Below, in pieces: positions 10,258-14,853 of a stretch of DNA of 21,860 nt. The stretch is taken from assembly GCA_049303905.1 (NCBI GenBank), contig JBAQNP010000036.1, positions 1-21,860 of the forward strand. The letters run 5' to 3'. The position numbers and the translations under genes are program-made. The stretch's first letter is position 1. Every line of letters begins with the position of its first letter. The stretch is from Candidatus Moraniibacteriota bacterium (GTDB lineage Bacteria > Patescibacteriota > Minisyncoccia > Moranbacterales > UBA2206). The notes under the pieces are model-generated. The model did no database searches. It was not told where the DNA came from and worked only from the letters and a program-made list of their open reading frames with translations.

Positions 10258-10907
10258 CCCTGTGGTGAGCGAAGCGAGATACAGGGATGATGGCGTGCTT
10301 TTTGTAGAACGATCCAGCGAGTTAGTTCTATGTCGTTGACTAAGCAACTTTATGTTGCGGAGTCGTAGTGAAAGCGAGCCTGAAAGGGCGAACTTAAATG
10401 GCATGGACTAGACCCGAAGCCAGGTGAGCTATTTATGAGCAGGGTGAATTTGCTGTAAAAGGCAAAGGAGGCCCGAACCCACGCACCGTGCAACATGCGG
10501 GGATGACTTGTGAATAGAGGAGAAATTCCAATCGAACTTGGCGATAGCTGGTTCTTCCCGAAATAGCTTGAGGGCTAGCGTTTGAAAACTATGCTTTGGA
10601 GGTAGAGCTACTGAATGAGAATTCGCGGTTCGCCGTAGGGTTCTCAACCAAACTCCGAATTCCAAAGTAATTATTCAAGCAGTCAGTACTCCGGGGCTAA
10701 GCTCGGAGCACAAGAGGGAAAAAGCCCATGATCGCAATCTAAGGTCCCAAAATTTATGTTAAGTGGGAAAGGAAGTAAAGTTTCTTATACACCTAGGAGG
10801 TTGGCTCAGAAGCAGCCATCCTTTAAAGAGTGCGTAACAGCTCACTAGTCTAGAGACTTTGCGCCGAAAATTCAACGGGGCTCAAACATAATACCGAAGA
10901 TGCGGGC

Positions 10908-11015
10908 ACGTAAATTTCTCAAAGGAAGATAATCTAATTTTGTGAATTTTTAAAATTTCACGTAAGCGCTTGCAAACAAGCGAAGTTAGATTTTGTCTTT
11001 TGAGAAATTTACGTG
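10908..11015 (+). other. Intervening/expansion segment in 23S helix 45. A perfect 17-bp outer stem (CACGTAAATTTCTCAAA / TTTGAGAAATTTACGTG) encloses branched inner hairpins.
   Basis: Placed by alignment to E. coli around position 1170. Stem seen directly. Confidence 0.5.
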
Positions 11016-11995
11016 CGGTAGGGAAGCGTTCCATAAGCGCTGAAGGTCGAGCGTGAGCAAGGCTGGAGTTTATGGAAGTGAGAATGCTGGAACGAGTAAC
11101 CGCAATTGGGGTGAGAACCCCCAACACCGAAAGTCTAAGGTTTCCTGGGCAATGTCAATCAACTCAGGGTTAGTCGGGCCTAAGGCGAGGCCGAAAGGCG
11201 TAGTCGATGGACACACGGTTAATATTCCGAGACTTTCGTGTTATTTGATGGAGGGACGCATTGCTGTACTTTCTGCGAGTAATTGGATTCACGTAGGAGT
11301 ATTGAGAGCGTATAGTAGGAAAATCCGCTATACAATAGTTCAAGATACTTCTCGAATTCTGCTTTACGGCAGGAGAAGAGAAAGGAGCGCGGTGCCTGGA
11401 AAAACTTCTAAAATTAGTAACACGAAAACCGTACTAAAACCGACACAGGTAGACTGGGCGAGTAGCCTAAGGTGAACGAGTGAACCTTCGTTAAGGAACT
11501 CGGCAAAATAGCGTCCGTAACCTAGGGATATGGACTCCCCGATGCAAATCGGGGCGCAGCGAAAGATACCAAGCGACTGTTTACCAAAAACACAGGTCTC
11601 TGCAAACCCGTAAGGGGATGTATAGGGGCTGACGCCTGACCAGTGCTGGAACGTTAACGGGAGCGGTGCAAGCCAATCCCCGAAGCGCCAGTGAACGTCA
11701 GCGATAACTATAATCGTTCTAAGGTAGCGAAATTCCTTGACAGGTAAATTCTGTCCCGCATTAAAGGCGTAACGACTTGGTAACTGTCTTAACGAAGAGC
11801 TCGGTGAAATTGCAATGACGGTAAAGATGCCGTCGACCTGCAGCAAGACGAAAAGACCCCGTGGAGCTTTACTACAACTTGGTATTGAATTTGAGATTGT
11901 GCTGCCTAGTATAGGTGGGAGACTTTGAAGTCCTGACTCTGGTTAGGATGGAGTCAAAATATGTAATACCACTCTGTATAGTTTTAAATTCTAAC

Positions 11996-12143
11996 CCTGG
12001 GCTGTTATGAGTCACAAAAGACTTATGATTTTGAGCCGTTAAATATGATATATTTAAAAGAGGATTAGATTAGACGAAGTTGTAATTATCGTATTTACGG
12101 TTCATAAATTTGTAAGTCGTTTTGGTTATTCATACCAGTCCGG
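11996..12143 (+). other. Expansion of about 125 extra nt in 23S helix 79, relative to the ~22-nt hairpin in E. coli.
   Basis: Flanked by conserved TTCTAACC and GGACAGTGCCTGGCGGGTAGTTTGACTGGGGCGGTC blocks. The extra length is not simple-repeat sequence. Confidence 0.4.
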
Positions 12144-12154
12144 GGACAGTGCCT

Positions 12155-12190
<36 letters not shown>

Positions 12191-12351
12191 GGCAACGGAG
12201 GCGTTTACAAAGGTTGGCTAGACTCGGATGGAAATCGAGTCGATAGTGCAAAAGCATAAGCCAGCTTTACTGCGAGACTTATTAGTCGATCAGTTACGAA
12301 AGTAGAATTTAGTGAACCGACTGTCGCATATAGATGCGCAGAAGATCATCA

Positions 12352-12384
<33 letters not shown>

Positions 12385-12410
12385 CCATCCAAGAGTCCAT
12401 ATCGACGATG

Positions 12411-12470
<60 letters not shown>

Positions 12471-12516
12471 TGGCTGTTCGCCAATTAAAGCGGTACGTGA
12501 GCTGGGTTCAAACCGT

Positions 12517-13236
12517 TAAGTAGCTTTTTAGCTAATTAGCTCTTAGCTTTTTAGAAAAAAGGTGATTTAACAGTTTGAACCCGAGGAAAACGACATCAAA
12601 ATCACGGCGGCCTTAAGGAGTAATCTTTAAGTGCGAAACTGACTCATATCGATGAAATCCTGTTGCATGACAAACCGTCATGTGTTAGGATAATATCGAG
12701 GGAAGTCGTATATGTTAAAATCAATTTCGTCAACAAAAAAATCTTATCTAGCTGGTTTTCTAGATGCTGATGGAAGCATTTATGTACAAGCGAAACCAAA
12801 CAGAACTTATCGTTTTGGGTTTCAGATTGTGTCATATATTGTTTTTTATCAATCAGCAAAAGATGCCGATTCTTTTTCGAAGGTATGTTCATTAATAAAA
12901 TTTGGACATAAACGATTAAGAAAAGATGGCATTATAGAACACATCATCAGTAAACAAGAAGATATTATTATGTTTATTAAATTAATTGAGTCTTATATCA
13001 TAATGAAGCAAGCTCAGATAAAATTATTAAAAAATATAATTAATCTTAAAAAGAAAGTTAGAAATAAGAAAGATTTTATAAAGTTGATAAATTTGGTGGA
13101 TAAATTTCGTGAATTGAATTATTCAAAAAAACGAAAAAAACGTACATTGACCCCGTAGAGACTAAACGTCAGTCTCCTGAAATTTTTTTGGGATGAAGGT
13201 ATAGTCCAATGCACGTAGTAATACGTGGAAAACATG
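12517..13236 (+). mobile_element. Group I intron inserted in 23S rRNA at the E. coli 2593-equivalent site (...GGGTTCAAACCGT | CGTGAGACAGGTTGG...), which is the I-CreI-type homing site.
   Basis: The exon sequence is continuous and conserved across the gap. The upstream exon ends in U and the insert ends in G (omega-G). The insert contains a LAGLIDADG ORF. Confidence 0.75.
12712..13158 (+). CDS. LAGLIDADG-family homing endonuclease (single-motif, I-CreI-like, presumably homodimeric) encoded within the 23S group I intron.
   Basis: Motif LAGFLDADGSI near the N-terminus. 148 aa. The ORF lies wholly inside the intron. Confidence 0.85.
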   Translation: MLKSISSTKKSYLAGFLDADGSIYVQAKPNRTYRFGFQIVSYIVFYQSAKDADSFSKVCSLIKFGHKRLRKDGIIEHIISKQEDIIMFIKLIESYIIMKQAQIKLLKNIINLKKKVRNKKDFIKLINLVDKFRELNYSKKRKKRTLTP

Positions 13237-13895
13237 CGTGAGACAGGTTGGTCTCCTATCTGCTGTAGGCGTTATTGCTTGAGAGGACTTTTTCCTAGTA
13301 CGAGAGGACCGGAAAGAACAAACCTCTGGTGTACCAGCTGTTCCGCCAGGAGCACTGCTGGGTAGCTACGTTTGGACGGGATAACCGCTGAAAGCATATA
13401 AGCGGGAAGCCCACCTCAAGATTAGGCAATCCCTTGCACCAATTTTGGGAAAATTTTTTGTAACATAAAATCAGAGGCGAAGCCGATGCTTCGCATCAAT
13501 CTTATGGATATCAGAGAATATTTCTAAAATTGGTGTTAGGGCGATTTCCTGGAAGATGACCAGGTTGATAGGTTTCAGGTGAAAGCACAGCGATGTGTTA
13601 AGCCAAGAAATACTAATAAATTGAACTTTATCTCTCTTAATTTTGATTATCATGTAACATGAAACACAAAACATGAAACAATTCTTTGGATTTGATTCGT
13701 GTTGCGTGCTGCGTGTTATGTGATTTAGGTTAGCAGTTAGAAATTACTAAATTAGCATTTTGTATGAAAAAATATAAGGAAAGTTTGAAGTTTATTTTTA
13801 CAATTTTTACCCTCATAATGACGACCGTAGTATTTTTCATGTTTTTTTCTCCAGTAATTAATGCTTTTTGAAAGAATATATAAGAGAGCATTATT

Positions 13896-14001
13896 TTGGT
13901 GGCTCTAGCGAAGTGGCTACACCTGATCCCATTCCGAACTCAGCAGTTAAGCACTTCAGCGCCGATGGTACCTCTTACGAGGGAGAGTAGGCCGCCGCCA
14001 G
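13896..14001 (+). rRNA. rrf: 5S rRNA.
   Basis: Conserved 5S blocks CCTGATCCCATTCCGAACTCAG, GCGCCGATGGTA and GAGAGTAGG. Terminal helix TGGTGGC/GCCGCCGCCA. Confidence 0.85.
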
Positions 14002-14046
14002 AATAATGCTCTTTTTTGTTTTCTAAAAATATGCTAAAATATTTTT

Positions 14047-14853
14047 ATGGAACTAGAAAATACCCAACGTAAAAAATATATTATAATATTCATCTATATA
14101 ACTTTTTTTATCCTGATTATTCTCGGTCTTTATTTTGCGTTTAAAACAGAAGAAACTTGCACAGATGGAAGACAAAATCAAAATGAGCATGGTATTGATT
14201 GTGGGGGAGTTTGCCAAAAAGAATGCAATACAATAATAGCGAAGGATTTGACAATTGTAAAAATTGGCGTAGTCTTCTCTGGTATTTCTGGAAAATATGA
14301 TTTTTATGCAAAAATAGCTAATCCAAATGCGGTTTTTGGTGATAAAAATTTTGCTTATGAAATAAACTTTAAAGATGAAGCGGGTAGTATTATTGCTACT
14401 AAAAAAGGCTCTAGTTTTATTCTACCAAGCGAGGAAAAATATGTAGTGGAAACCAATATCGAGGCACCAAGCGTTCCTTTTTCTCAAGAGTTTAAAATAC
14501 TTAGTTCTGACTGGATGCGATTTGAGGATTATTATGAAAAGCCAGATATTCAAATTATTAATAAAAATTATAGCGAAATTTCTAGTGGAACAGGTTTTGC
14601 TAACGCACAAGGCTTGCTTCGCAATCGTAGCCCCTATGATTTTGATAATATAAAAATACAAATTATATTAAAAGATTCTACTGATAATATTCTGGCGCTT
14701 AATTCCACTCAGATGGGGACAATTAAGGCAGGGGAAGATCGGGATTTCAAAACTTTTTGGCCGAGTAGTTTCCCTGGCACAGTAAATACGATGGAAGCTC
14801 AAGCGGAGGTGAATATTTTCAATTCGGAAGCTTTTCTAAAGCGAACATACTAG
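14047..14853 (+). CDS. Hypothetical membrane-anchored protein. One N-terminal TM helix, a Cys-rich segment (CTDGRQNQNEHGIDCGGVCQKEC), then two tandem ~50-aa beta-rich repeats. Its stop overlaps the start of the SEDS gene.
   Basis: ORF of 268 aa. Hydrophobic N-terminus. Internal repeats AKIANPNAVFGDKNFAYEINFKDEAGSIIA... and AQGLLRNRSPYDFDNIKIQIILKDSTDNILA... seen by eye. Confidence 0.6.
   Translation: MELENTQRKKYIIIFIYITFFILIILGLYFAFKTEETCTDGRQNQNEHGIDCGGVCQKECNTIIAKDLTIVKIGVVFSGISGKYDFYAKIANPNAVFGDKNFAYEINFKDEAGSIIATKKGSSFILPSEEKYVVETNIEAPSVPFSQEFKILSSDWMRFEDYYEKPDIQIINKNYSEISSGTGFANAQGLLRNRSPYDFDNIKIQIILKDSTDNILALNSTQMGTIKAGEDRDFKTFWPSSFPGTVNTMEAQAEVNIFNSEAFLKRTY

Follow-up and report, generated by a model that had tools for sequence, protein, structure and literature searches.

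The window analyzed here, a stretch of 21,860 nucleotides (nt) from a Candidatus Moraniibacteriota bacterium (assembly GCA_049303905.1, contig JBAQNP010000036.1, positions 1 to 21,860), contains a 23S rRNA gene on the forward strand which is broken by a probable group I intron encoding a LAGLIDADG homing endonuclease. The 5' exon extends from 9397 to 12516 and ends with a U, as delimited by the Rfam match for large subunit (LSU) rRNA and by the alignment of the insert-free sequence with E. coli rrl. The 3' exon covers positions 13237 to 13537, where the LSU model matches with 183.2 bits over model positions 2620-2925, in agreement with the E. coli alignment. Between T12516 and C13237 the gene is interrupted (…CAAACCGU/CGUGAGACAGG…) by an insert of exactly 720 nt (12517-13236, forward strand). 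Its borders read …GGGTTCAAACCGT/taagtagc…aaaacatg/CGTGAGACAGGTTGG…, with the breaks after 12516 and 13236. Joining of 12516 to 13237 makes the sequence colinear with the E. coli 23S rRNA over the junction (GGGTTCAAACCGT/CGTGAGACAGGTTGG versus GGGTTTAGAACGT/CGTGAGACAGTTCGG), and the ligated exon junction is predicted as …GGGUUCAAACCGU-CGUGAGACAGGUUGG…. The exon T in front of the insert aligns to position 2592 of the 2903-nt rrl gene of the E. coli strain used, which we take to be U2593 in the standard 2904-nt numbering (the L2593 site, with U2585 and A2602 as landmarks). The natural target of the homing endonuclease I-CreI, TCAAAACGTCGTGAGACAGTTTGG (PMC1904291), differs at two positions from the intronless site of this organism, CAAACCGTCGTGAGACAGGTTGG; an intronless allele would have the pattern GGGTTCAAACCGTCGTGAGACAGGTTGG. 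The location at the LSU-2593 (I-CreI) site, which had been proposed in an earlier note on this DNA, is borne out by the E. coli colinearity and by the LSU match of the 3' exon. The length of 720 nt, the preceding exon U, the terminal G and the open reading frame (ORF) for a protein of 148 amino acids are likewise as described there.

Relatives of the encoded enzyme were sought in a collection that represents each species by one genome. Such a relative is encoded by at least 437 species genomes, and 407 protein clusters match. The best 80 of these at least 437 genomes were fetched; according to their record titles, almost all of them are metagenome-assembled genomes of Patescibacteria or the Parcubacteria group. 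Both exon flanks were found at 78 loci, all of which carry an insert of 601-824 nt at exactly the same position (…ACCGT/…/CGTGAGACAGG…). In the window, T12516 precedes the insert and G13236 ends it as terminal G (omega-G); among the relatives the preceding T is present in 78/78 and the terminal G in 77/78. The limits of the intron given above rest on these shared junctions and on the core fold described below. Locus L056 carries the sole intron of the 78 that ends with an A before the 3' exon (…GTGACAAATATA/CGTGAG). The A may stem from a sequencing error or from a shifted junction, or the intron may lack the terminal G; one intron of the latter kind occurs in Coxiella burnetii, judging by the title of a paper cited in Tsurumaki et al. 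(2024; PMC11270868).

An assembly artefact, by which foreign intron-like DNA was joined into the 23S gene, might be suspected here, as rRNA genes easily give rise to chimeras during assembly and the window probably comes from a metagenome. Moreover, the exact ORF product has no record in a collection of 15 billion proteins, and the nearest protein cluster is 94% identical. However, both junctions fit a known homing site to the base, the same architecture is found in 78 independent assemblies, and both the guide sequence and the long 5' helix described below fit this organism's own exon sequence. The G+C content of the insert drops to about 0.27-0.32 over the ORF, a value that is common for ORFs of this kind and close to that of the non-rRNA DNA on either side. 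We therefore regard an artefact as extremely improbable.

The fold of the insert was examined by covariation. When all 68 ORF-deleted introns were aligned with MAFFT, the P7.1/P7.2, P5 and P9 insertions left too many gaps, and the set was therefore restricted to 31 ORF-deleted introns with the architecture of the window intron, the halves of which were joined by an artificial GAAA linker. The structure tested was drawn by hand on the window sequence and comprises P2, P3, P4, P5, P5a, P6, P7, P8 and P9, with P7 as a pseudoknot. Over 61 pairs in 10 helices, 85.6% of the cells are paired in the 31 introns, compared to 35-42% when the partners are slid by 1-3 columns. Double-sided changes occur at 37 of the 61 pairs, and the observed values were reached by none of 500 shuffles. 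RNAalifold, applied blind to the same alignment, recovered P10, P2, P3, P4, P5, P6, P8 and P9.

All elements of the core lie on the forward strand. P2 is a hairpin of 8 base pairs (bp) at 12612-12631 with a GUAA loop (12620-12623) and shows compensatory changes at 8/8 pairs; it is one of the RNAalifold helices. P3 is formed by ACUGAC (12638-12643) and GUCAGU (13168-13173), 97.3% paired with double changes at 5/6 pairs. The region 12649-12699 contains P4 (12649-54/12694-99), P5 (12657-62/12686-91) and P5a (12665-71/12677-83). The P4-P5 helix is 98.7% paired, with A-U/G-C covariation at one P4 pair, and P5a is found in only part of the intron family. The 5' strand of P6, GGG-AA-GUC-GUA (12700-12710), has its partner at 13143-13154 and is 91.4% paired, with covariation of C-G and U-A in 14 and 12 sequences. 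It carries a GAGG motif upstream of the ORF start, which may act in ribosome binding. P7 consists of GACUA (13160-13164) and UAGUC (13202-13206) and forms a pseudoknot with P3. It is 99.4% paired and nearly invariant, so that its support comes from conservation and from the alignment to the Rfam group I intron model RF00028 rather than from covariation. The P8 hairpin (13175-13193), also recovered by RNAalifold, has double changes at 6/6 proximal pairs. It is followed by J8/7 (UGAAGGUA), which together with the P7 3' strand occupies 13194-13206. Both P7 strands and J8/7 agree with the RF00028 consensus, and the string UAUAGUCC in the J8/7-P7 region is nearly invariant across the intron family. 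The P9 hairpin (13212-13227; 6 bp, GUAA loop) is 94.1% paired with double changes at 6/6 pairs. The insert has the P3-P9 core, the P3/P7 pseudoknot and the stacked P4-P6 domain of a group I intron.

Upstream of P2 lies an internal guide sequence, CACG-GCGG (12603-12610, forward strand), which is complementary to the ligated junction. GCGG (12607-12610) pairs with the exon bases CCGU (12513-12516) as P1, with U12516·G12607 at the 5' splice site, and CACG (12603-12606) pairs with CGUG of the 3' exon (13237-13240) as P10, which RNAalifold predicts independently. The string CACGGCGG is the wobble complement of the ligated junction CCGU/CGUG, with a G facing the splice-site U. The P10 strand lies directly 5' of the P1 strand, as is canonical for group I guide sequences. 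GGCGG is found in 78/78 introns and is preceded by CACG in 52/78. P1 cannot covary because its exon bases are invariant; P10, however, varies in step with the 3' exon at some loci (CGCG with CGUG or AGCG; CGUA with UACG). Both the U·G-containing P1 with its P10 and the pair of exon U and omega-G are those of group I introns. The assignment as group I intron made in the earlier note is supported in this way from two sides, by the covariation in the 31 relatives and by the guide sequence matching both exons.

From this anatomy and from what is known of the family, the intron would be self-splicing. The guide CACG-GCGG would pair with the last four exon bases, CCGU, to form P1, and an external guanosine held in P7 would attack the 5' splice site at U12516. 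G13236 would then take the place of the guanosine, while P10 (CACG with CGUG) aligns the 3' exon. Exon ligation would restore the helix beside the peptidyl-transferase centre.

It is also conceivable that the insert is not ligated out, but is kept in the mature 23S rRNA, as reported for the Simkania 23S intron, or is excised by ribonucleases (RNases) with no joining of the ends, so that a fragmented 23S rRNA remains as with classical intervening sequences. The same 23S gene has five more insertions relative to E. coli (9528-9642, 9787-9836, 10112-10278, 10906-10977 and 12009-12134; 115, 50, 167, 72 and 126 nt, respectively), which follow the approximate E. coli positions 132, 276, 544, 1163 and 2212. 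The insertions of 115, 167 and 126 nt fold into long hairpins, and those of 115 and 167 nt are AU-rich with short tandem repeats such as AAUUUCU and GAAAAUU. The sites at about 132, 544 and 1163 are presumably those of the intervening sequences in helices 9, 25 and 45 that are processed by RNase III, so that several AU-rich hairpin insertions at classical intervening-sequence sites accompany the intron in one gene. Short 23S insertions of CPR bacteria (Candidate Phyla Radiation) are described at known bacterial intervening-sequence sites by Tsurumaki et al. (2024; PMC11270868), who also cite a 23S group I intron of Chlamydiales that remains unspliced and bacterial intervening sequences processed by RNase III. 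Against a loss of splicing stands the complete group I core, which is kept by compensatory changes in dozens of species. A guide matching both exons and a terminal G would be needless for excision by RNase III. Furthermore, 9 nt separate the insert from A2602, and in this peptidyl-transferase region 720 additional nucleotides or a strand break would probably not be tolerated. An insert that is not removed by splicing is therefore very unlikely.

The ORF (12712-13158, forward strand) is situated in loop L6 and encodes 148 amino acids with a single LAGLIDADG motif. The product matches the Pfam family LAGLIDADG_1 (PF00961) with 35 bits over residues 13-106 (cut-off 23.1). A phmmer search against the PDB gave I-MsoI, I-CreI and I-CvuI as best hits. 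For I-CreI the E-value is 3.9e-14, residues 11-144 being aligned to 10-143 at 32% identity. An AlphaFold model built from 23 homologues has a mean predicted local distance difference test (pLDDT) value of 87.6, and its top Foldseek matches are I-MsoI (TM-score 0.89, root-mean-square deviation (rmsd) 1.8 Å), I-CreI (0.85) and I-CvuI (0.81), with an rmsd of about 2 Å overall. The predicted fold, alpha-beta-beta-alpha-beta-beta-alpha with a single motif, is that of I-CreI-type homodimeric endonucleases. The proposal that the ORF encodes a single-LAGLIDADG protein of the I-CreI family agrees with the best matches in both sequence and fold.

The invariant columns in an alignment of 23 diverse homologues include D20, Q47, K99, K28, N30, Y33, Q38, R68 and R70, of which D20, Q47 and K99 align to D20, Q47 and K98 of I-CreI. 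In I-CreI, these invariant residues are partly metal-binding or catalytic (D20, Q47 and K98, with R51 as accessory residue) and partly base-contacting. With the catalytic and contact residues invariant, the gene looks intact and, judged by its sequence, selected as a DNA enzyme. The 3' strand of P6 doubles as coding sequence for the C-terminal residues (…R-T-L-T-P), and translation ends at a UAG in J6/7, within the invariant J6/7-P7 string GUAGAGACU. This overlap with P6 and J6/7-P7 explains the invariant C-terminus of the protein family. As family knowledge suggests, the 148-amino-acid enzyme would act as a homodimer and cut the intronless site CAAACCGTCGTGAGACAGGTTGG, which is pseudo-palindromic, in a second genome or a further copy of the rDNA, and recombinational repair would copy the intron into the cut site (homing). 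Self-splicing, activity and specificity of the enzyme, and current mobility of the element are inferred from the anatomy and the family.

Taken together, 12517-13236 is very probably a group I intron with an I-CreI-type homing enzyme in the single 23S gene of a CPR/Patescibacteria bacterium.

In the window intron, the P7 strand GACUA is followed by AAAC and then directly by the P3 3' strand GUCAGU, without P7.1/P7.2 hairpins. An insert between P7 and P3 is present in 45/78 relatives (locus L077 was corrected by eye) and reads as two hairpins in the relatives inspected. The hallmark of subgroup IA, P7.1/P7.2 between the P7 5' strand and the P3 3' strand, is absent from the window intron. The algal introns, such as Cr.LSU, are classed as IA3. 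As P7.1/P7.2 are missing, the window intron departs from the IA-like form of most relatives and of the cyanobacterial L2593 introns; it is regarded as a reduced derivative of that form and was not assigned to IA3. An IC3-like label, for which the GNRA loops of P2 and P9 and the lack of P7.1/P7.2 would speak (presumably as in Azoarcus), was dropped because relatives carry P7.1/P7.2.

A second pairing of the 5' splice site region was found in addition to P1. An extended exon-intron hairpin (12504-12582, forward strand) of about 20 bp is formed by exon positions 12504-12516 plus intron positions 12517-12523 with 12563-12582 (…ACAGUUUGAACCC; …UUUAACAGUUUGAACCC). It was identified by covariation and as the minimum-free-energy fold. 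In 27 distinct sequences the hairpin is 89.6% paired, compared to 15-52% in slid controls, and double changes occur at 8 pairs. The hairpin also covaries with an exon polymorphism: A or G at position -6 is found as A-U in 15 and as G-C in 12 sequences. A mismatch at C(-3) is kept in 24/27, and the splice-site U is paired with A in 26/27 sequences. The hairpin of the window buries the 5' splice site, in the pair U12516-A12570, and competes with P1.

A short version of this helix, exon GGGUUC with intron GAACCC, is present with at least 6 bp in 54/78 introns and follows exon variants (GGGUUA with UUAACCC; GGGUUU with UAAACCC). The short version would form a pseudoknot with P1. The L2593 family (L002-L081) is modular, with a short 5' form that has P1 only, a medium form with the GGGUUC/GAACCC helix and a long form with the full hairpin. 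P7.1/P7.2 vary in presence, and P5 or P9 is further extended in some members. The long form occurs without P7.1/P7.2 in 29 introns and with P7.1/P7.2 in 6, whereas the short and medium forms lack P7.1/P7.2 in 4 introns and carry it in 39. This association could reflect shared ancestry alone. The long hairpin was also considered as the catalytic P1 and was rejected, since it places a U-A instead of a U·G pair at the splice site and has no adjacent P10 strand; furthermore, the universal CACGGCGG is the only possible P1 in the short-form relatives.

The hairpin may act as an exon tether or a folding switch, or may stack with P1 in a pseudoknot. A function of this kind, so far undescribed, in a sub-lineage which lost P7.1/P7.2 is a tentative idea, which we consider possible rather than probable; the hairpin would then be a working exon tether or a switch of folding. 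Competition between P1 and another helix at the 5' splice site is reportedly known from the P(-1)/P1 alternative pairing in Tetrahymena pre-rRNA (Woodson and Cech), where a helix with the 5' exon competes for the splice-site bases. The Tetrahymena competitor lies inside the exon, whereas in the window the rival strand belongs to the intron; it covaries with the exon and makes a helix far stabler than P1.

Several results weigh against the interpretation as a splicing and mobile group I intron. The window-wide Rfam scan gave no Intron_gpI match at the gathering score of 50 bits. In a search of 851 nt, RF00028 matched 13070-13228 with 31.4 bits (E 5e-6) and, in a second match, 12649-12753 with 12.5 bits. 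The search with this model, proposed as a check in the earlier note, thus gives a match, but one below the gathering score, and is not decisive. The low score is attributed to the 447-nt ORF in L6, which splits the ribozyme model. With one relative (L006), RF00028 gave no match at all. The model is insensitive for the L2593 intron family, and a scan at the gathering threshold alone would wrongly refute the group I assignment. A second point is the lack of P7.1/P7.2, which help to stabilise the guanosine pocket in the Twort intron (PMC1995217). Third, the long hairpin is the minimum-free-energy fold with -51.4 kcal/mol, compared to -28.9 kcal/mol when P1 is forced, and hence about 22 kcal/mol more stable. 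Since U12516 is paired with A in this stabler hairpin, splicing may need refolding or the help of a protein. Fourth, the position of I-CreI R51 is an Asp in the ORF product according to the PDB alignment. Finally, the identities of enzyme and 3' exon are uncorrelated (rho -0.02; 215-nt exon) among 54 species with an uninterrupted 3' exon, after removal of about 20 loci with downstream insertions.

The last point bears on the mobility of the element. The closest enzyme pairs are similar in the exon as well, with enzyme and exon identities of 0.95 and 0.94 for the window and L002 and of 0.93 and 0.96 for L036 and L044. Hosts with an exon identity of 0.84-0.85 to the window carry enzymes of 0.52-0.80 identity. 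As the 215-nt exon is a weak host marker, the pattern is suggestive only, and recent mobility is neither proved nor excluded by it. It is compatible with a mix of vertical descent and homing, as was proposed by Tsurumaki et al. (2024; PMC11270868).

A rival explanation is that the intron splices, but its enzyme no longer drives homing and serves as a maturase helper, or that the intron is inherited only vertically because nearly all sites are occupied. The most similar enzyme pairs, which are also similar in the 3' exon, fit vertical descent, and a stable hairpin at the 5' splice site together with the loss of P7.1/P7.2 could call for a protein cofactor; PMC11270868 also notes a possible maturase function of homing endonucleases. 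To our knowledge, no maturase activity has been reported in the I-CreI subfamily, which counts against a maturase. The metal- and base-contacting residues of I-CreI are invariant across 23 diverse homologues, as expected of a working DNase, and among more distant pairs the similarity of the enzymes does not parallel that of the exons. On balance, an enzyme that has ceased to drive homing appears unlikely, and an active homing endonuclease is the preferred reading.

The closest described systems are the CPR introns at site '23IS12' (2593) of Tsurumaki et al. (2024, J Bacteriol; PMC11270868), which share lineage, gene and position with the window intron. In that study, 2593 is listed among the CPR 23S sites where LAGLIDADG_1 ORFs predominate, and their enzymes belong to the same Pfam family, LAGLIDADG_1, with the same single-domain architecture. 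CPR 23S group I introns are reported there to cluster round the peptidyl-transferase centre. The enzyme tested in that study is one from another site (I-ShaI, 23IS7), which cuts its target and dimerises; no secondary structure for the 2593 introns is given in the text considered here. The element is common in CPR and its site is already published, so that it is one more instance of a large, already described population of I-CreI-site introns. In the earlier note, self-splicing rRNA introns were called rare in bacteria but characteristic of CPR lineages. Within its lineage the present element is not rare, with the at least 437 species genomes mentioned above.

The cyanobacterial L2593 introns of Synechococcus C1 and C9 and Thermosynechococcus elongatus (Haugen et al., 2007; PMC1995217) also reside in a bacterial 23S rRNA gene, are about 745 nt long and resemble the window intron in the single-LAGLIDADG ORF, the short P5 and the short P2. 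The ORF enters the ribozyme core in these introns; here its stop codon lies in J6/7. By their description, they are set apart by a P7.1/P7.2 extension of about 65 nt (PMC1995217), which is absent from the window intron, and by the long exon-intron 5' hairpin, which is found in the window intron.

The Cr.LSU intron with I-CreI (Chlamydomonas reinhardtii chloroplast), as well as I-MsoI and I-CvuI, share the rRNA site and the homodimer-type fold (TM-score 0.81-0.89) with the element described here. The equivalents of D20, Q47 and K98 and several base-contacting residues of I-CreI are kept. I-CreI differs in its length (163 versus 148 amino acids), in the 32% identity of the sequences, in R51, which is replaced by Asp, and in its chloroplast instead of bacterial host.

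In about 20 related 23S genes, a further insertion of about 130-900 nt is found between the L2593 intron and the landmark GCTGAAAGCAT, while the window has none. The loci concerned are L004, L009-L012, L017, L018, L024, L027, L029, L031, L035, L040, L047-L049, L055, L057, L066 and L076. In most of them a search over 1.5 kb did not reach the sarcin-ricin loop landmark. These insertions are consistent with the CPR intron sites 2604 and 2657, which are given as further sites in PMC11270868.

The intron also disturbs the annotation of the rRNA gene, as the earlier note had anticipated. The Rfam model LSU_rRNA_bacteria matches with 2153.6 bits from the 23S start at 9397, and a 5S rRNA gene lies at 13895-14003. 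The window-wide cmscan match of the 23S rRNA stops at 12577, within the intron, yet the model is forced to its position 2925, and about 300 nt of the 3' exon (13237-13537) are lost from the annotation. The match runs to 12577 and then stops because the intron strand ACAGUUUGAACCC mimics the partner of an rRNA helix; the LSU model places the long exon-intron hairpin as a helix of the rRNA.

No 16S rRNA or tRNA gene was found in the window, which extends 9 kb upstream and 8 kb downstream of the 23S-5S unit. At 8058-8750, upstream of this unit, a mechanosensitive-channel domain is encoded, and an unannotated ORF (14047-14853) follows downstream. Other genes in the window encode GyrB (gyrB), a NUDIX protein, an FtsW/RodA-family protein, ribosomal protein L25, an SLT-domain protein and an EPSP-synthase-family protein. 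At 418-3372 (forward strand), an ORF of 984 amino acids matches the Pfam family MVP_shoulder above its cut-off (3.1e-20) and falls just short of that for Vault_3 (2e-6). It appears to be major-vault-protein-like, in what appears to be a CPR genome.

For the organisms that carry such introns, annotation pipelines will mis-size or truncate the 23S rRNA genes, and the Rfam intron model misses the family at its threshold. More than 400 diverged I-CreI-like enzymes on nearly one 22-bp site are a natural panel, which could be of use for work on specificity and for engineering. Of the element's features, only the exon-intron helix might be new, and a conserved helix that masks the 5' splice site could repay further work. 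If the proposed function is true, the helix could keep the peptidyl-transferase strand of the rRNA in place, set the timing of the first splicing step or direct reverse splicing, and it might structurally compensate for the missing P7.1/P7.2.

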